Position numbers and translations under genes: made by a program. Positions 3,140-13,253 of a stretch of DNA of 13,253 bases are shown piece by piece. The number at the start of each line of letters is the position of its first letter. Position 1 is the stretch's first letter. This DNA is from Planctomycetota bacterium (lineage in GTDB: Bacteria; Planctomycetota; GCA-002687715; DRQF01): contig JALTLO010000204.1 in NCBI GenBank assembly GCA_027001995.1, positions 32,132-45,384 of the forward strand, read 5' to 3'. The notes below the pieces were generated by a model. It did no database searches, was not told the origin of the DNA, and saw nothing but the letters and a program-made list of their open reading frames with translations.

Positions 3140-3210
3140 AGGTGGCGCCCGGAATCGAACCGGGTTACACGGATTTGCAATCCGTTGCCTAACCGTTCGG
3201 CCACGCCACC
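3140..3210 (-). tRNA. tRNA-Cys (anticodon GCA), CCA not encoded
   Basis: Minus strand folds as GGTGGCG-TG-GCCG-AACGGTT-AGGC-A-ACGGA-TTGCAAA-TCCGT-GTAA-CCCGG-TTCGATT-CCGGG-CGCCACC-T: 7-bp acceptor stem, GCA anticodon, TTCGA T-loop and U73 discriminator typical of tRNA-Cys. Confidence 0.97.
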
Positions 3211-5362: not shown

Positions 5363-7963
5363 TTATCGTTTTCGGCCACCCATGGACCACCAAGCTCGCC
5401 ATTCATCTCGGGTGCCATAGTCGATTTTGAATTGCCCCAGCAAGAAACTCCTGACGTCGGGTCCATACCACGGGTCTTCCACAGTTCGAAACAAAAGATC
5501 GCAAGCTTTATCATCCATATGGCCGAGGCGAATGAGCGTCTTGGCTGCAGCCACTGCCACAGCTCGATCCCGATCTTCGACACCAAACCGCAAAGCTGGC
5601 AAAAGATTGTCTTCCTGGTGATGAGCCAGAGCATCAAAAGCAGCTTCTCGCACGAAAGGATGCTTATCGCGGGACAACACCAAAAGTCCTCCCCGAGCCA
5701 CCGCATCTTGCCCCATAGATCCCAAGCACCGAGCTAACTGCAAACGTACCATGGCATCAGGGTCCCGCACCAAAACCAAAAGCTGTTTGGTCAAGGAGCT
5801 GGTCTCGAGGGGGACCAATGCTCTCAATGCCCCTTCACGAACTCGCGCCTGATCAGCCCCCAAAAATCGGCCGATCAAGGGGAGCAGCTTTTGATCTGAA
5901 CCGTAAGCCAAGTATTCAAGCAAAGTCTCCGGTCGCGCTGCTTGAGAGTCAAAGAGCGCCTCCGTAACCAACTCTTTGAGTTCACCTCCCAAACACCGCT
6001 CAAAGAGAGCCATGTAGACGTACATCCGGGTGGCATCCAAGAATGGCGACCGCAAAAGAACAACGATGTCTTCTTTCGGTATGGAAACCCCACGTTCCCA
6101 ACACAGCTCCACCAATTGAAAGGTCGCTCGGGGATCGCCCTTGCCAACGATGCTCCGGGCAACTTCATGGGCCTTCTCTGTTCCGATGTCAAAGAGACGC
6201 TCCAAGGTCTGCATCCGCCGATCCACTTCAATCTCTAAGCTTCTTTGGAACCATGCTGGCCCACTGGGTCGCCCTTGGCGAAAGAATTGAGTCCCAATGT
6301 CCATGGCAACTGGTGAGGTCAACGAAGACAAGGCGCCTTCTATCAAAGGAATAAACAATGGTTGAGGAGATCGAGACATCGCCAAGTAGATGGCATCCAT
6401 TTGATCGACGGTCAATGTCTGATCATAGGTACGTTTGGCCAGTTCGCGCTCCGCCAAACGCTGAGTAAACAAAGGGCTCTCCGTGGACGTCACCCCAAAA
6501 GCTGGGGAAACCAACACAGATTTCATTTCCTCCCCACTTCTCCCCCCATTCTCGAGCCAAGTAAGAAGGGATTGTTGACTTTCAGCAAAGTCGGGCCAGA
6601 CTTCTTGCCACACGCGCCCCCATGCTTGCCTATCTTGTTCAGAGCCAACACAAGTCAGAATGAGTGTCTCCATGGCCACGGCTCGAAGAACGTCGTTTTT
6701 TTTTCCTTCTGCCCAAGGAACGATGCTATTGCGGAGGGTCGAAGACAAAGCCGAATCCTTCAAGACCATAGCGACTGCTGTGGCAATGCTCTTTTCCAAG
6801 TCCTCAAACACAGCAGCCTCCAAATCGGAAGGATAGGCTTTTTTTTCTCCTCTCTGGATGGCAATAGCCGTCAGCAGAGCACTCCGCCTCTTGGGAGCCA
6901 AAAGTGCAGCCCGGGCTTCTTGGGCAACGATTTTGTCTTCTGCGTCGATCAACTCAAAGAACGCCTTCATGGGCACTTGCCCCAAAGGCCGAGCCTCCAA
7001 GACTCGCAAACGAGCCCGCCCCAGAACACCTTTGTCCAACTTCACATCCAGAAGATCAATTCCTTCGTCCTGGCTTTTCTTCACTAAAAGTCGCCCCATC
7101 GCCTCCACCACCCCTGCGGTTTGGGGCAAACCAGACCGCCCCCGTTCCACAGCCCGTGCCCATGTCCAGGAAGACGACGCACGCGCAAAGTGAATCGCTC
7201 CAACAGCAACAGCCTCATCTGTCATCAAAGCAGCCAGAACCTCAGCGATGGCATCGTCCTTCGACAACATGGCCCCCAAGACCGCCGGAGTTAGTTGAGG
7301 ATTCGCTTCTAATTTCTGGCCCAGCCAGCTTTCTAAAGTTGGACTTTTTCGTCGACACACCAAGCGGGCAAATTCAATTTCGTGCTCCCAAAAATAGGCA
7401 CTTTCGTCTCCGGGTATTTTGATAGTCCCAGGAATTTTCTCTTGGAGTTTCTCCGCCCCCAGCTTCTTAAGTTTTTCGCCCATTTCCTTCAGGGACGATT
7501 TCAGAGTCGAAATCTGAGATTGCAACTTTGTCTCCTGAGCTGCCATTTTTCTGACCTTGGCTTCTTCAGCTCCCAGTTTCTTCCGCAGCTCCCCCTGCAA
7601 ACGAGCCGCCGCCTTCATGCCCACTTGCTGATCACTTAAACGCTTCTCCAGACGGGCTGACTCTTTCTTCAGTTTCTCGACCTCCACCGTGGCTTGCCGG
7701 AGTCTCTCTTGCAGGCTTTCAAACTCACTTTCGCTGACCACCGATTCCTCGACCACGAGTGGTTTGGCTGCGTTCTTGAGTTTCTTGTTTGCAGCATTGA
7801 GCTTTTGGGCCAGGATTTCTTTGGCCATGGCTGCTTCTCGGAGGGCAACCTTGTGATCTTTGGCTCCTTGGCTCATCTGAACCCACATCACCCCCAATCC
7901 ACCCAAACAGACAAGGAGAAGAAGGCCAAGCACGACGGTAAATGACTTGCTGTTTTCAGACAT
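5363..7963 (-). CDS. Membrane-anchored coiled-coil and HEAT-repeat protein (~866 aa)
   Basis: N-terminal hydrophobic helix (FTVVLGLLLLVCLGGLGVMWV), a ~150-aa K/E/L/Q-rich coiled coil, then HEAT-like repeats (D-x-x-x-x-VR-x-x-A: DQARVREGAL, DPDAMVRLQLA, DKHPFVREAA, DRDRAVAVAAA). Start set at ATG 7963 because a promoter overlaps the 8023 ATG. Confidence 0.85.
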   Translation of the reverse strand: MSENSKSFTVVLGLLLLVCLGGLGVMWVQMSQGAKDHKVALREAAMAKEILAQKLNAANKKLKNAAKPLVVEESVVSESEFESLQERLRQATVEVEKLKKESARLEKRLSDQQVGMKAAARLQGELRKKLGAEEAKVRKMAAQETKLQSQISTLKSSLKEMGEKLKKLGAEKLQEKIPGTIKIPGDESAYFWEHEIEFARLVCRRKSPTLESWLGQKLEANPQLTPAVLGAMLSKDDAIAEVLAALMTDEAVAVGAIHFARASSSWTWARAVERGRSGLPQTAGVVEAMGRLLVKKSQDEGIDLLDVKLDKGVLGRARLRVLEARPLGQVPMKAFFELIDAEDKIVAQEARAALLAPKRRSALLTAIAIQRGEKKAYPSDLEAAVFEDLEKSIATAVAMVLKDSALSSTLRNSIVPWAEGKKNDVLRAVAMETLILTCVGSEQDRQAWGRVWQEVWPDFAESQQSLLTWLENGGRSGEEMKSVLVSPAFGVTSTESPLFTQRLAERELAKRTYDQTLTVDQMDAIYLAMSRSPQPLFIPLIEGALSSLTSPVAMDIGTQFFRQGRPSGPAWFQRSLEIEVDRRMQTLERLFDIGTEKAHEVARSIVGKGDPRATFQLVELCWERGVSIPKEDIVVLLRSPFLDATRMYVYMALFERCLGGELKELVTEALFDSQAARPETLLEYLAYGSDQKLLPLIGRFLGADQARVREGALRALVPLETSSLTKQLLVLVRDPDAMVRLQLARCLGSMGQDAVARGGLLVLSRDKHPFVREAAFDALAHHQEDNLLPALRFGVEDRDRAVAVAAAKTLIRLGHMDDKACDLLFRTVEDPWYGPDVRSFLLGQFKIDYGTRDEWRAWWSMGGRKR

Positions 7964-7999
7964 GATATTTCGCTCTTTTCTCAAATCTTCGGACGGCCG

Positions 8000-8028
8000 A
8001 TAGTATCCCTTGGCTCGGGCCATGTAAA
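8000..8028 (-). promoter_or_regulatory. Sigma70-like promoter for the HEAT-repeat gene
   Basis: TTTACA (8028-8023) - 17 nt - TACTAT (8005-8000), near consensus with optimal spacing. Confidence 0.6.
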
Positions 8029-8081
8029 CGCCTCATGTTCTCCCCTGTTTCTTCTCGTGGGCGCTTCCGCTATCATGGGCT

Positions 8082-8846
8082 ATGATTGACAGCCACACCC
8101 ACCTCTATTGGAAGAAGTTCGACGACGACCGAGACCAAGTCTTGGCCCGTGCTCGGGATGCCGGGGTCGAAGCTCTCTTAGTTATTGGCATTGATGTAGA
8201 AACCTGCCAACAAGCCATCGAATTGGCAGAATCAGATCCAACCATTTTTGCCACCGCTGGGTTTCACCCCTGCGACCTCAAGGACATCACTGAAGACGAC
8301 TGGATTACCTTAGATGGTTTCCTAAAACACAAATCTGTGGTGGCTGTGGGAGAAACGGGCCTCGACTACTACTGGGAGACAGACTCCATAGACACCCAAA
8401 AAGAGGCTTTGGAGCGGCATTTCGCTCTGGCAAGAAAGCACGACTTACCATTGGTGATTCACACCCGAGATTCCATCGATGATTTTCTTAAAATTCTGGG
8501 AGATGAAGCGCCAGGACTGAGAGGTGTCATGCACTGTTTCTCTGGCGATACTGCCCAAATGGAAGAAACGATAGCCTTAGGTTTTGATGTTTCCTTTGCT
8601 GGGCCTTTGACCTACAAGAAGTCCGCAGCACTCAGAGAGGCCTGCCAAGCCGTCCCCGCAGACCGTTTTCACATTGAAACTGATTCACCATTCCTGCCAC
8701 CTCAATCGAAGCGGGGCAAAAGAAACGAGCCGGCTTTGGTCCGAGAAGTAGCTGAGAAGGTCGCTGAGCTACGAGGTTGGACTCTCAAAGAAACCATGGA
8801 ACAGACCGCTACCAATACCCGGCGTTTGTTTGGCTTGCCGAGGTAA
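8082..8846 (+). CDS. tatD: TatD family metal-dependent hydrolase/DNase
   Basis: Motifs IDSHTHL, GFHP, AVGETGLDYY, PLVIHTRD, GVMHCFSG, IETDSPFL and RGKRNEPA. Confidence 0.96.
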   Translation: MIDSHTHLYWKKFDDDRDQVLARARDAGVEALLVIGIDVETCQQAIELAESDPTIFATAGFHPCDLKDITEDDWITLDGFLKHKSVVAVGETGLDYYWETDSIDTQKEALERHFALARKHDLPLVIHTRDSIDDFLKILGDEAPGLRGVMHCFSGDTAQMEETIALGFDVSFAGPLTYKKSAALREACQAVPADRFHIETDSPFLPPQSKRGKRNEPALVREVAEKVAELRGWTLKETMEQTATNTRRLFGLPR

Positions 8847-8880
8847 AAAGCACTGGGATTTCTCTCTGCATAATCGACCA

Positions 8881-8927
8881 AGAAAACTACGCGCCTTTTT
8901 TTGACAAAGGCGCGTAGTCTTATTTTT
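8881..8927. terminator. Bidirectional intrinsic terminator between tatD and the pilin gene
   Basis: Perfect 13-bp stem ACTACGCGCCTTT (8886-8898) / AAAGGCGCGTAGT (8906-8918), with T-rich tails on both strands, between convergent genes. Confidence 0.85.
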
Positions 8928-8992
8928 GGCTTGGTTCAGGTTTGGGCTTTCAAGAAGAGAAACTCAAACCAGAAGCGGAAGCGGGATGGGCA

Positions 8993-9700
8993 CTACTGAA
9001 GAGTGACCCAAACTTCACCGTCAGCGCCAACGACACCTGGGGAGGTGTTGGCTGTTATGTCACCAGCTGCGGTACCGGCAATGAATGCAGCTTCCGCAGC
9101 GGGTCCTGCACCTGGTCCATCGTAGGCCCGGTTCACGGACTGATTGGTGAACATGATTTCACCAGCTTGGTTGACGAAGAAGGCCCGGTTACCCGTGTTG
9201 GCCAAATCTGCAGGCCAAGCATAGGCGGCCCAGGAAAGCTCGCAAACATCAGCGTCTGCTTGAACAATATTGGTACCAGCTCCTGTTTCAACATCACTAG
9301 CACCTGCAGCAGTTGGCAAGAAGATTCGGAAGACATAACCACCCTTAACCACCTCACCTGCAGCATTGATATTGCGGAAGGAAGCGGCCAAGACGGGGGG
9401 GTTCAAGGTGTTTGCGTTGGCAACACCACCATGGGAATCAAGTTGATAGAGACCAGAAAGATCGCCGAAGAAACCGTACTCGCCGGTTCCGTCAGCGTCT
9501 GAATCAATAGCCCCACCTTGTTGAAGCTGAGCCTGAGAAGACACCAGTTGACGCAAAGTAGCAATAGCATTGGACTCATTGGCGGCCAAACGGGCGCTCA
9601 ACAAGTTTGGTACAGCGATAGCTGCGATAATCGCGATGATGGCCACCACGATCATAAGTTCAATCAGTGTAAAACCCTGATTATTGTTGGACTTCACCAT
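8993..9700 (-). CDS. pilA: Type IV prepilin, probable major pilin (235 aa)
   Basis: Class III signal peptide MVKSNNNQG|FTLIELMIVVAIIAIIAAIAVPNL (G-1, F+1, E+5, P+22), strong RBS AGGAG at 9710-9714, its own terminator, and location downstream of pilT-pilC. The major-pilin call is inferred from context. Confidence 0.88.
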   Translation of the reverse strand: MVKSNNNQGFTLIELMIVVAIIAIIAAIAVPNLLSARLAANESNAIATLRQLVSSQAQLQQGGAIDSDADGTGEYGFFGDLSGLYQLDSHGGVANANTLNPPVLAASFRNINAAGEVVKGGYVFRIFLPTAAGASDVETGAGTNIVQADADVCELSWAAYAWPADLANTGNRAFFVNQAGEIMFTNQSVNRAYDGPGAGPAAEAAFIAGTAAGDITANTSPGVVGADGEVWVTLQ

Positions 9701-9752
9701 TATGTGAATCTCCTAATTCCGCTCAGCGAGAAGAAACGCTCAGCAACCTTTA

Positions 9753-9847
9753 TTGACCGAGAACCATGCGGTGCGAAGAACACACTTCGTCGCCAAGAAC
9801 TCAGTTTTGCCCGAGAAAGCGCGGTGCGAAACTTCAGTTTCGTCGCC
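9753..9847 (-). repeat. Two tandem imperfect 41-42-nt direct repeats with internal dyad symmetry in the pilin leader
   Basis: Plus strand: TTGaCCGAGAAccatGCGGTGCGAAgaacacacTTCGTCGCC (9753-9794) and TTGcCCGAGAAagcGCGGTGCGAAacttcagtTTCGTCGCC (9807-9847). 29 positions are identical, in four blocks. Confidence 0.9.
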
Positions 9848-9918
9848 TTTCCTCTGGCGTACCACCAAGGCCTCGATCACCTCGCAAAACGAGGACGACT
9901 GAGGCCCCAGTTGTGTCA

Positions 9919-10737
9919 TCAACCGTTCAACAATTCTTCGATTTGGACGTCTTGGGCGTGCTCATGCCAAAAGGCGTTATTCTTGAGCAAACCCCGACCG
10001 CGTTTGTCGAGTTGAACGTATTTTCGCAGAGCCCTTTCGGCACCTTGGGCATCCCCAACTTCCATGTAGGAACGGGCCAACGTGTGCCAGTAAGGCCAGG
10101 CCACGGATTCTTCCGCGGGTATTCGATTGAGGGCTGCCCAAGCATCGCCATAGCGTTGCTCCTCGATGAGAGTGCCTGCCATCATGGCATCGAATTCGGC
10201 GTTTTCAGGATCGAGTCTCTTGGCAGCAGCAAAGTAAGAACGAGCTTGGTCAAATTGGGCTTCTTGCCAAGCGATCAAACCTCGCATGCGAAGAGTCCCT
10301 GGGATTTCTCCCAATTCGTCTTCGATGGTCCCCAGTTCATCTTTCGACGCTTGGAAGTTTTCTAAGCGGCGAAAAAGATCGGCAACAGAAAGCTTGATGT
10401 CTCGTTTCAGATCCGATTCTGACGTGAGAACCAAGGCTGCTCGATAACTCTTGATGGCGCTGGTTTCACGTCCTTGACGCTCGTCAATGAGCCCCTGAAT
10501 CAGCCATGCATGACGGCTATTCGGCTCACTATCAAAGACAAAGTCGAGATGGACTTGGGCTTCATCGTAGGCGCCACTGCGGGCCAGCATGTCCGCACTG
10601 GAGAGCCGCGCTCCCATGTCTGGCTCAGGTTCTTGGATCCAGCCAATAAAACCCAAGATTGCGACGGCTACCAGCGCCAGGGGGTAGACAACCAAGCGGT
10701 ATTTGTTCGATCTGAATTTTACGAGTGTGTTTGACAT
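9919..10737 (-). CDS. Tetratricopeptide-repeat protein with N-terminal membrane anchor, in the pil cluster
   Basis: Hydrophobic segment LVVYPLALVAVAILGFIGW, then TPR-like units (EPNSRHAWLIQGLI...AIKSYRAAL, FDQARSYFAAAKRLDPENA, YWHTLARSYMEVGDAQGAERALRKYVQLD). Start uncertain: ATG 10737 preferred over GTG 10800. Confidence 0.85.
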   Translation of the reverse strand: MSNTLVKFRSNKYRLVVYPLALVAVAILGFIGWIQEPEPDMGARLSSADMLARSGAYDEAQVHLDFVFDSEPNSRHAWLIQGLIDERQGRETSAIKSYRAALVLTSESDLKRDIKLSVADLFRRLENFQASKDELGTIEDELGEIPGTLRMRGLIAWQEAQFDQARSYFAAAKRLDPENAEFDAMMAGTLIEEQRYGDAWAALNRIPAEESVAWPYWHTLARSYMEVGDAQGAERALRKYVQLDKRGRGLLKNNAFWHEHAQDVQIEELLNG

Positions 10738-10854
10738 CACGATTTGGTCAACAGTCCTTTGAGGCTGAATTCGACTTCGGCACTTTTTAAGATCGTCCAC
10801 ATAGTCTATATACTTAAAGTACTTTTCTCTGGAATAAATATGCAGGAACCGAAG

Positions 10855-10891
10855 GAGGCCGGGCCACTCCTTGGTGGAGAAACCCGGCCTC
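10855..10891 (-). terminator. GC-rich hairpin after pilC (possible terminator or stability element)
   Basis: 9-bp inverted repeat GAGGCCGGG (10855-10863) / CCCGGCCTC (10883-10891) with further internal pairing, 25 nt after the pilC stop. The U-tract is weak. Confidence 0.5.
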
Positions 10892-10915
10892 GCGAATCTG
10901 TCTAATTGGGTGAAC

Positions 10916-12133
10916 TTAGCCCCCTGGAGTCAGGGAAGCCTGGAGCTTCATAATTGGCAGGAACACGGCTAAGACGATTCCGCCCACCATGATTCCCATA
11001 AACCCAATCATCAAAGGCTCGATCAAACTGGTAAGTGCTTTAACCTCCGCTTCAATCTGCTGGTCATAGAAATCGGAAATCTTGCTCAGCAGGTGTTCCA
11101 AAGCACCGGACTTCTCACCGATACCAACCATGCGCGTCACCATGGGAGGGAAAATCCAATGTTGGGCCAAGGGCTCAGCCAAAGTCTCGCCCTGGCGGAC
11201 ATTCTCCAAAGAATCACGAACCGCACGAGAAACAATGATATTGCCAGCGGTATCCGCAACAATTTCGAGGGAACCTAAAATCGGTACACCACTCTTGATC
11301 AAGGTAGAGAAAGTTCGGGAGAAACGAGACAAGGCCACCTTGCGAAATAGGGAGCCAAAGACCGGCAACTTCATGGTGAGATGATCGAAGAAGACTTTGC
11401 CGCTTTTAGTGGTCTTCCAGGCTTTCACGGCGAGGAAAATGGCCACGCAACCACCAATGCAAGTACCGACATTCTCTCTCATGAATAGAGATGCTGTCAT
11501 AACCATGACGGTCAATCCTGGCAGTTCAATATCCAGGCCATCAAAAATCTCTTTGAACTTCGGTACGATGCAGATCATGAGGAAGCCGGTGATGGCTATA
11601 ACCATGACCAAAGACACAACTGGATAAGTCATGGCCGACTTGATCTCCCGCTTAAGAGCGGCAGTCGACTCAAGATACTCGGCTAAGCGATCAAGAATTT
11701 CATCGAGCTGACCTGAAGCCTCGCCAGCTCGAACCATACTGACATAGATCTCAGAGAAGACCTTAGGGTATTTCCCGAGAGCGGAGGACAAGTCTGTACC
11801 GCCGCGAATGTCTTCGATGACAAAACCAACACAATTGCAAAATCCGGGAGACTGGGCTTGTTCCCGGAGAATCTCCAAGCATTCCAGAAGAGGAATACCG
11901 GCTGAAATCATGGTGGCCAATTGCCGGGTGAAGAGTTCGAGTTCGCCCTTCTTGACCGAGGGTTTGGCCTTCGCATCGCGCTTGACTCCACGCTCAGCAA
12001 CTTCCTTGACGTTCACAACAACAAGTCGCTGGCGTCCTAACTTCTGGCTTGCTTCTTCTTTTGTTGAACCTGAGACCATGCCGGTGACAGTCTCACCTTT
12101 AGCATTCTTAGCTTTGTACTTAAAATTCGCCAT
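10916..12133 (-). CDS. pilC: Type IV pilus inner-membrane platform protein (GspF/PilC family)
   Basis: FTRQLATMISAGIPLL, YVSMVRAGEASGQLD, IKSAMTYP, SRFSRTFSTLIKSGVPIL, GEKSGALE and LTSLIEP; adjacent to pilT. Confidence 0.95.
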   Translation of the reverse strand: MANFKYKAKNAKGETVTGMVSGSTKEEASQKLGRQRLVVVNVKEVAERGVKRDAKAKPSVKKGELELFTRQLATMISAGIPLLECLEILREQAQSPGFCNCVGFVIEDIRGGTDLSSALGKYPKVFSEIYVSMVRAGEASGQLDEILDRLAEYLESTAALKREIKSAMTYPVVSLVMVIAITGFLMICIVPKFKEIFDGLDIELPGLTVMVMTASLFMRENVGTCIGGCVAIFLAVKAWKTTKSGKVFFDHLTMKLPVFGSLFRKVALSRFSRTFSTLIKSGVPILGSLEIVADTAGNIIVSRAVRDSLENVRQGETLAEPLAQHWIFPPMVTRMVGIGEKSGALEHLLSKISDFYDQQIEAEVKALTSLIEPLMIGFMGIMVGGIVLAVFLPIMKLQASLTPGG

Positions 12134-12164
12134 TACCTATCTCTCTTAGTCAATCTCAAGGGGC

Positions 12165-13241
12165 TCATACCCGGGCATGTGGATTCGAAATGAGTCGCTT
12201 CAGTTCTTCTGGGTCAGTGGAACGTGACACAGCTTCGTCCAAGGAGATCAGTCTTCGGCTGTAGAGGTCGTGCAAAGACATGTTCATCGTGTTCATACCG
12301 GATCTACCGCCTGTTTGGATTTGGGAGTAAATCTGGTGACCCTTGTTATCGCGAATCAACGCCCGAATAGCTGTGTTTGACAGCATGATTTCCGACGCCA
12401 TGGCTCTTCCTCTTGAATTCGCCAGGGGAATCAACTGCTGACAAAAGACAGCTTGCAAAGTGAATGAAAGCTGTGTTCGAATTTGTTGCTGCTGGCCAGC
12501 GGGAAACACATCAACGATACGGTTGATGGTTTGCACACAATCGGATGTATGTAAGGTGGCAAAAGTGAGATGACCTGTTTCGGCTAAAGTCAGTGCCGCT
12601 TCAATGGTCTCCATTGTTCTCATTTCGCCAATGAGGACAATATCTGGATCTTGCCGCAATACGCTTCGCAAGGCATTTTCGAAGCTGTAAGTGTCCGTAC
12701 CTACTTCTCTTTGGTTGAAAAGGCACTGCTTGTTCTGGTGCAAGAACTCAATAGGGTCTTCCACTGTGACAATGTGCTGCTTGCGGGTTTGATTGATACG
12801 ATCAATCATGGCTGCCAAGGTTGTGGACTTACCAGAACCGGTGGCTCCAGTAACGAGCACAAGACCTTTGGGCAGATCGCAGATCTGTTGGCAAACATCG
12901 CCGGGAAGCCCCAATTCTTCGAAACCCTTGATCTCGTAGGGAATGACCCGAAAAACAGCAGCCACTGCGCCTCGTTGAACAAAGACATTTGTTCGGAAAC
13001 GTCCTAATGACGCAATGCCGAAAGACAGATCAAGCTCATGCTCTTTTTCGAACTTGGCGATCTGTTCGGCATTCAAGACGCTATAGATCAGCCTTTTGGT
13101 CTCTTGGGGCTCAAACTGCTCGTTGCTGGCATCAACCAAATCGCCGTCCAGGCGAAATTTCGGTGCCGATCCTGCGGTGACATGAAGATCGGACCCTCCA
13201 CGTTCCACCAGACCTTGCAACAACTCTTCTAAGGTGACCAT
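12165..13241 (-). CDS. pilT: Type IV pilus retraction ATPase
   Basis: GSDLHVTAG, Walker A GATGSGKST, TVEDPIE, LRQDPDIVLIGEMR, AETGHL...TLH and an AIRNLIRE-like motif (AIRALIRDNK). Likely start ATG 13241; the GTG at 13253 is at the window edge. Confidence 0.95.
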   Translation of the reverse strand: MVTLEELLQGLVERGGSDLHVTAGSAPKFRLDGDLVDASNEQFEPQETKRLIYSVLNAEQIAKFEKEHELDLSFGIASLGRFRTNVFVQRGAVAAVFRVIPYEIKGFEELGLPGDVCQQICDLPKGLVLVTGATGSGKSTTLAAMIDRINQTRKQHIVTVEDPIEFLHQNKQCLFNQREVGTDTYSFENALRSVLRQDPDIVLIGEMRTMETIEAALTLAETGHLTFATLHTSDCVQTINRIVDVFPAGQQQQIRTQLSFTLQAVFCQQLIPLANSRGRAMASEIMLSNTAIRALIRDNKGHQIYSQIQTGGRSGMNTMNMSLHDLYSRRLISLDEAVSRSTDPEELKRLISNPHARV

Positions 13242-13253
13242 GGGCAACCCCAC

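Follow-up and report, generated by a model that had tools for sequence, protein, structure and literature searches.

What precedes the pilin gene of this type IV pilus locus is a short sequence written twice, and the question it raises is whether the repeat acts as RNA, serves as a pair of sites on DNA, or is the trace of a neutral duplication. The locus belongs to a window of 13,253 nt (the whole stretch of DNA that was analyzed) from a Planctomycetota genome. On one strand the genes run pilT-pilC-TPR-pilin, and the element lies ahead of the last of them, in the intergenic region, about 220 nt long, that separates the TPR-repeat gene from the type IV pilin gene. The features are as follows.

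8880–8924, strand unassigned: hairpin between the convergent tatD and pilin genes, likely the terminator that ends the pilin mRNA
8993–9700, minus: type IV pilin of 235 aa with an N-methyl motif and a DUF2950-like domain, from its position probably the major pilin
9693–9708, minus: predicted start-codon hairpin (UUCAC/GUGAA) whose loop contains AUG and which can extend into the Shine-Dalgarno (SD) sequence
9710–9714, minus: SD sequence AGGAG of the pilin gene, read from the sequence and found in 9/9 loci
9719–9746, minus: SD-proximal hairpin ending a few nt 5' of AGGAG
9756–9805, minus: unit 2 (outer stem, core, apical hairpin), from homologue comparison and folding; 36.8 bits with covariance model R2
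9788–9794 and 9767–9775, minus: unit 2 core, GGCGACG and CGCACCGCA, respectively; the core ends 53 nt 5' of the SD
9809–9858, minus: unit 1 (outer stem, conserved core, apical hairpin), from homologue comparison and folding; 50 bits with model R2
9841–9847 and 9820–9828, minus: unit 1 core, GGCGACG and CGCACCGCG, respectively, the final letter being G where the consensus has A
9867–9908, minus: strong hairpin without a core, just 3' of the TPR stop codon
9919–10800, minus: TPR-repeat protein gene whose PilW-like match is weak and sub-threshold; immediately upstream in 9/9 loci
10916–12133, minus: PilC/T2SSF platform protein gene
12165–13253, minus: PilT/PilU-family ATPase gene, exceeding the TIGR01420 cut-off

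Elsewhere the window holds a tRNA gene with a GCA anticodon (Cys; 3140–3210, minus strand) and a gene at 5363–8023 (minus strand) for an 886-aa protein with an N-terminal membrane anchor, a coiled coil and C-terminal HEAT repeats. Short N runs lie immediately beyond the window end, and upstream of pilT on the same strand (G000:C204:45691-49656) are elongation-factor-G-like and prepilin-peptidase-like genes, which were named by eye.

The two units in the source genome

The two units are present, with the letters first quoted for them, at 9807–9847 and 9753–9794 on the minus strand. Their proposed period of 53–54 nt is borne out, with starts 53 nt and ends 54 nt apart, and the fifth apical pair reads A-U in unit 1 but G-C in unit 2, which confirms the compensatory change noted at the outset. 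When folding was compared with shuffled sequences, the 95-nt stretch 9753–9847 gave a z-score of −1.20, unit 1 alone −1.00 and unit 2 alone +0.39, while positions 9780–9920 gave −3.66 and the entire intergenic region −4.1. The 95-nt stretch folds no better than its shuffles because the coordinates first assigned omit the 5' strand of the unit 1 outer stem; the true helices start about 11 nt further upstream, and the corrected units span 9809–9858 and 9756–9805.

A search for further copies of the repeat found GGCGACGAA-N6-12-TTCGCACCGC exactly twice in the 5.2-Mb genome, both times at the pilin leader, and blastn of the leader against its own genome returned itself plus two 15-mers at E 0.86 and nothing else. 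Tandem repeats of comparable layout (blocks of 9+10+7, period 45–65) occur at six places in the genome. The middle has diverged in the pilin leader alone, and the remaining five consist of near-perfect tandem repeats, lysine/alanine-codon repeats or microsatellites. At G000:C29:7138, C58:13014 and C146:40863, stretches of 47–51 nt are duplicated in tandem almost perfectly.

Conservation and fold of the unit

When the upstream regions of homologous pilins were gathered, as the earlier note had advised, the motif proved to be kept: we count 19 copies, 1–3 per locus, in 9 loci (8 genomes of one Planctomycetota family and 1 metagenome contig). The genomic copies number 18 in the 8 genomes, the source genome included, with 2–3 per locus and always in the interval between the TPR gene and the pilin gene. 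The family has eight other genomes. Seven of these contain a pilin orthologue with 65–84% identity, each with the motif upstream; genome G004 (81% complete) is without the motif and also without close pilin and pilC orthologues. Scanning metagenomes by pilin gave 10 loci, one of which has the motif (a single copy; pilin 63% identical). The class of the source genome comprises 23 genomes in one order and four families, and in the three sister families (14 genomes) no copy was found at the pilin. The element is shared by four genera and the metagenome contig, a sample of about five independent lineages with paralogous copies among them. Over this range the core letters depart from consensus at just 7 of 19 × 16 positions, whereas the adjacent TPR protein is merely 30–54% identical.

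Covariance model searches place the element at one locus per genome. Model R2 scores 17 genomic copies at 36.8–66.1 bits and one degenerate copy at 24.6 bits, mostly on sequences it was trained on, and model R1, trained on 11 copies, recovered six of eight held-out copies at E ≤ 0.01. The best off-locus R2 match in the source genome's own class (29.7 bits, in G019) is without CAC and lies in a coding region. Among 151 genomes of the phylum, R2 found the family loci only, plus one coding-region match at 31.2 bits; in three other classes it matched 0/2, 0/4 and 3/151 genomes, the three being single matches of 26.5–31.2 bits inside long open frames. A tandem-pattern scan of GTDB genome contigs gave at least 120 loci, every listed one at 24.2 bits or less, and of the 85 loci that a single-unit scan picked out in viral contigs, none exceeded 24 bits. 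The genome searches scored 36–150 first-look candidates per genome, and because the candidates were limited in this way weak copies may have been missed.

Alignment of the copies shows that the unit is a single long hairpin, made up of a variable outer stem of about 7–11 bp, a near-invariant core (GGCGACG/YGCACCGCA) and an apical hairpin of variable length, whose interior measures 11–19 nt across the 19 copies; the covariance model of the unit has 0 branch points. In a plain MAFFT alignment of 18 copies, double changes occur at 10 of 13 predicted pairs. In a model-fitted alignment of 17 copies, 15 of 20 pairs have changed on both sides, 89.7% of pairing cells are paired (67.7% in shuffled and at most 42.7% in slid controls) and the covariation score reaches 0.59, against 0.195 in the shuffled and at most 0.128 in the slid alignment; these figures are inflated by the fitted alignment and by kinship among copies, the latter being retained in the slid control. 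The outer stems contain 135 Watson-Crick, 31 G-U and 6 A-C combinations in 209 cells, and in folding the sense strand is more stable than the antisense strand at 9/9 loci. The excess of G-U over A-C and the stabler sense strand both assign the fold to the mRNA strand.

Under a shared register the core reads G.A (18/19 copies), then G-C, C-G and G-C (19/19 each), followed by a 1×3 internal loop in which a single A faces CAC (18/19). Beyond this loop come C-G (17/19, with one A-U and one mismatch) and G-Y (18/19), and in 11/19 copies a 3-nt bulge before the apical stem. RNAfold often draws an alternative 2×2 AC/AC loop in the core. Because the core hardly varies, its register is almost without covariation support (the one A-U in place of C-G fits both registers), and its invariant letters leave the 1×3 and 2×2 loops undecidable from sequence. 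Unit spacing ranges from 53 to 94 nt across loci, and in two genera some unit slots are occupied by hairpins without a core. In the source genome the hairpin at 9867–9908 is possibly a decayed third unit; both other genomes of the genus have a hairpin at that position with a different sequence.

The claim of the earlier note that the leader contains a tandem structured cis-acting RNA outside known families is therefore supported by the 19 copies, the covarying stems, the G-U bias of the sense strand and the lack of an Rfam match. The fold it had drawn survives in part: the apical hairpin stands, and the two small hairpins per unit give way to one long hairpin with an internal loop. Its downstream elements belong to this same helix: CCGC folds back onto the 5' GCG, and UUCUCGG supplies the 3' side of the long outer stem. 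The supposed invariance of the UUCUCGG block does not extend beyond 2/19 homologous copies, and the second stem (A)CCG/CGG(U) can form in 6/19. Taken together, the comparison indicates that selection acts on pairing in the stems and on sequence in the core, and we have very high confidence that the element is a functional RNA structure.

The pilin leader and the regulation of pilin in sister families

Between the units and the pilin gene the leader has a recurrent layout. The distance from the last core to AGGAG is 45–54 nt in 9/9 loci, the last core is intact or nearly so throughout, and folding predicts a hairpin, of a sequence that differs between loci, immediately ahead of the SD in all nine. 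Behind the SD lies a CAC able to pair with a GUG that coincides with or follows the start codon, and this pairing is compensated (UUGCAC/GUGCAA) in L064. The median folding energy from SD to codon is −7.0 kcal/mol in the 9 element loci vs −1.7 kcal/mol in 13 element-free pilin loci, a comparison between related, non-independent loci that includes one mis-picked SD. No terminator was found between the units and the pilin gene, and no terminator or anti-SD switch is common to the nine loci; alternatives that pair the SD exist in some single loci. In whole-leader folding the core forms at P ≥ 0.5 in 16/19 copies. An alternative fold with the SD paired is preferred in the G008 leader, and the low folding figures of L064, for which a truncated leader was folded, arise because the folded boundary cuts into a unit.

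A sigma-70 scan found no site from the TPR gene to the pilin start. A sigma-28-like motif gave no genome-wide spacing peak and no conserved site in the element-bearing family, and no promoter signal at the nucleotide level is conserved in the TPR gene across that family. The first core begins 19–32 nt past the TPR stop codon in 6/9 loci. The lack of conserved promoter letters in the TPR gene, together with this short distance, suggests that the element is co-transcribed from the upstream genes. We also compared metatranscriptome contigs (one run, 6% of words shared) with positions 8000–13253 of the window. One contig of 151 nt matches 9599–9749 with 1 difference and another matches 9751–9863 with 13 differences, both at a depth of about 4; no close piece of the neighbouring genes is present among the matches listed (8 of 22). 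Four substitutions are listed, two of which keep or improve a pair and one of which restores the consensus A. As the contigs carry no strand, start or level, they are not counted as proof of transcription.

The element-free relatives have a different sequence in front of their pilins. In two sister families GCCGAARA lies 170–225 nt before the pilin cleavage codons (L010, L012, L014-L022), inside the 3' end of the upstream gene, where it encodes Ala-Glu, often with TTRRG 16 nt before it. These residues are coded GCC GAA at 11 of the 12 loci examined, while the same-frame codon shares are 0.14–0.52 of Ala for GCC and 0.07–0.71 of Glu for GAA. In G024, TCAAG-N16-GCCGATGA spans the TPR stop codon. 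These motifs resemble the flagellar-type −10 box GCCGATAA through which, according to the available text of PMC8325347, WhiG drives type IV pilus genes in Rubrobacter, and GCCGAARA is a candidate sigma-28-like promoter for the pilin in families without the RNA element. The source genome also has a second DUF2950-like pilin gene (L031, G000:C43; 52% identical), with GCCGATAT about 90 nt before the cleavage codons of this paralogous pilin and no RNA motif.

A c-di-GMP-I riboswitch (RF01051) is present in 23/23 genomes of the class (L210-L235), and at 19 of the 23 loci listed it stands directly before a FliA/WhiG-like sigma factor frame. One source-genome copy, G000:C159:8865-8950 (minus strand; L214), is among these loci, and the genome's own sigma factor exceeds the FliA/WhiG cut-off; the arrangement of riboswitch on sigma-28 thus appears to be class-wide. 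The second copy in the source genome, G000:C146:36365-36454 (minus strand), precedes a long open frame (up to 920 aa) that probably encodes a secreted protein. G024, which belongs to another class, has a c-di-GMP-I riboswitch (L024:3297-3399, minus strand) immediately before its TPR-pilin gene pair. Pilin control seems to differ by family, with a candidate sigma-28-like promoter in the sisters and the RNA array here, although the mutual exclusion of promoter and element is a single contrast between clades and not a statistical association.

What may read the core

The element can be pictured as an array of cis-acting RNA hairpins that the pilT-pilC-TPR-pilin transcript carries in an untranslated part, immediately ahead of the ribosome-binding site of the pilin. 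Since the stems vary yet stay paired, and the 16 letters of the core are held, something would have to read both the sequence and the shape of the core. This reader would act in trans and would most likely be an RNA-binding protein or a ribonuclease/adaptor, for which the one to three copies would provide additional binding sites. Its binding may raise or gate pilin output post-transcriptionally, by shielding a processed mRNA of the pilin, by easing the passage of ribosomes through the weak start-codon hairpin, or by both, so that pilin would be made in excess over the co-transcribed assembly proteins. The lack of a switch that overlaps the units and the confinement of about 16 conserved letters to an unbranched helix favor a protein or nuclease adaptor as the partner, and none is encoded beside the locus. 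With a probability of about 0.5, we take the units to be repeated binding sites through which a factor acting in trans, probably a protein, sets pilin output after transcription; that the element controls the amount of pilin made is probable.

The invariant core would be explained equally well by a small ligand, and tandem riboswitch aptamers, with the core as a pocket for a cyclic dinucleotide, another nucleotide or an ion and with an effect on pilin translation (for example through the start-codon hairpin) or mRNA processing, are the strongest competitor, though we rate them as rather unlikely. In general, tandem aptamers consist of a short structured, conserved unit repeated 5' of a gene, and a bulged invariant core, variable distal stems, 1–3 tandem copies and a 5' position fit that picture. 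The lineage already uses c-di-GMP riboswitch control (RF01051 in 23/23 genomes, and before the TPR-pilin pair in G024), the folds of G008 and L064 (the latter on a truncated leader) pair parts of a unit with the SD or start, and the core CACCG is complementary over 5 bp to the AUGGUG start region. This last match is estimated to be at chance level, however, and there is no conserved terminator, anti-SD or overlap of the last unit with the SD, from which it is separated by 45–54 nt and another hairpin. The conserved part amounts to only some 16 letters of an unbranched helix in which neither pseudoknot nor junction was seen; the unit is unlike RF01051 and every Rfam riboswitch, and the organism already has canonical c-di-GMP-I switches. 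A specific form of this proposal, which we consider unlikely, is a very small new riboswitch class in which the 16-letter bulged core senses a lifestyle signal and 1–3 additive copies control pilin translation, replacing the sigma-28 promoter of the sisters; if true, pilus control would have moved from transcription to an RNA sensor in the element-bearing family. More doubtful still is a leader that acts by structure alone, whose hairpins would be nuclease cut sites or 5' protectors of the papBA or Clostridium SRPS kind and whose core would be a nuclease determinant or a mere fold-stabilizing motif, with no regulatory factor. At about 50–60 nt and some 20 bp the units are similar in size to the substrates of double-strand nucleases, core-less hairpins take some of the slots in two genera, and the element separates assembly genes in low demand from a pilin in high demand that is followed by a terminator-like hairpin; precedents are described in the available text of PMC5927463, PMC4423207 and PMC10311766. 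Yet protection requires stability rather than 16 near-invariant letters per copy across genera, the core in fact reduces stability, and a single hairpin would be enough where 7/9 loci have 2–3 intact cores.

Sites on DNA, either tandem duplex operators (CGAA-N8-TTCG, or GGCGACG and GCACCGCA as half-sites) or single-stranded hairpins for a recombinase, are very improbable. The two copies of the source genome do show the N8 dyad about five helical turns apart, and GCG/CGC forms a short inverted repeat, but the dyad that had been offered as an operator is confined to those two among the 19 copies. Across the copies the spacer is 11–19 nt long and covaries, contrary to the invariant N8 without covariation by which the earlier note would have recognized an operator. 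A duplex operator, with fixed half-site spacing and no need for pairing, is largely refuted, given that units lie 53–94 nt apart, spacer and flanks conserve pairing and not sequence, and the G-U bias is strand-specific; occurrence at one locus per genome and the lack of a recombinase in the window also speak against DNA sites. We give least credence to a neutral local duplication, a REP/MITE-like repeat or a coupled leader peptide. Copy number is variable, and in 4/9 loci starts that overlap the TPR stop open frames through the array. Neutral duplication is nevertheless contradicted by the conservation of the core across four genera and the metagenome contig at a single locus per genome, and the many unrelated loci expected of a dispersed REP/MITE-type repeat were not seen. 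The peptides encoded there have neither frame nor sequence in common, and stop triplets show no depletion, with 41 counted vs 43.3 ± 4.6 in shuffled sequences.

To our knowledge, few descriptions exist of type IV pilin control at the RNA level apart from c-di-GMP riboswitches, sRNAs and Csr, and the cis-regulatory RNAs of uncultured Planctomycetota are almost uncharacterized. Should the core bind a small molecule, it would define a new riboswitch class, and should it bind a protein, a new post-transcriptional pilus regulator; the narrow range of the motif, one family, limits its general weight. Because the motif is small, its secondary structure well supported and the core letters to mutate obvious, its testing in vitro does not require the organism.

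Comparison with known RNA families was made at several levels. The proposed Rfam comparison leaves the novelty of the units standing: at a permissive E-value, Rfam 15 matched only the tRNA in the window plus one chance match elsewhere at E 4.1, and the eight homologous loci gave three sub-threshold matches, none on the units. RF01051, a two-stem aptamer, had no match at the pilin leader at 35 bits or more, and the two copies in the source genome lie on other contigs (76.1 and 68.4 bits). Guanidine-II (mini-ykkC) riboswitches have two hairpins capped by ACGR tetraloops; we rejected this class since ACGR does follow GGCG in 14/19 copies but within the helix, the apical loops are variable and Rfam gives no match. 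The aptamers of glycine and glutamine-I riboswitches form a three-way junction, and they were set aside on the unbranched unit model and the lack of an Rfam match. ANTAR, CsrA and K-turn sites were likewise dropped, as the variable apical loops are without their consensus. Literature searches found no description combining planctomycete, RNA motif, pilin and riboswitch; papers containing both core words appeared unrelated by title among the matches listed, and word searches in the available main text of four motif-discovery papers (PMC11109978, PMC8632094, PMC5737381, bioRxiv 10.64898/2026.09.15.751765) found no pilus or Planctomycetes motif.

The element shares with the glycine, glutamine-I/glnA, NAD+-I/nadA and guanidine-II riboswitches a tandem 5' unit with a conserved core and variable distal stems. 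Unlike them, it is an unbranched helix with the core in an internal loop and a variable apical loop, no expression platform was found, and the controlled gene is a pilin. With c-di-GMP-I (GEMM-I) it has in common that it is a cis-acting RNA linked to pilus/motility genes, with no match in sequence or structure here.

A closer likeness at the level of the core is the C-loop, an asymmetric loop within a hairpin in which 3 nt starting with C lie opposite 0–2 extruded nt (available text of PMC4551918 and PMC9516175). Compared with JAR3D group IL_73276.5, the element has the same C-A-C long strand, one extra base on the short strand and the hairpin setting, and under the shared register CAC lies opposite A in 18/19 copies. 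The closing pair of a C-loop has to allow the crossing trans WC/Hoogsteen pair; the common variants close with U-A, those accepted in Table 12 of PMC4551918 ending in U*A, whereas the element, in its putative register, closes with C-G after CAC in 19/19; variants other than U-A are reported for viroids in PMC9516175. As the A/CAC loop closes with C-G and not the usual U-A, we term it C-loop-like only. For at least one C-loop that was tested, protein binding is reported (PMC9516175, section 9).

In position the nearest counterparts are papBA, where a 5' structure stabilizes the downstream pilin mRNA (PMC5927463), and the SRPS stem-loops (PMC4423207), both as described in the available text. Like them, the element is intercistronic and stands before the pilin at the end of an operon with unequal output, occupying the interval between the TPR gene and the pilin in 9/9 loci, upstream of a pilin presumably needed in excess. 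In contrast to both, it has a repeated, sequence-conserved core. On these comparisons the element is a candidate for a new, family-restricted cis-regulatory RNA with a well-supported structure.
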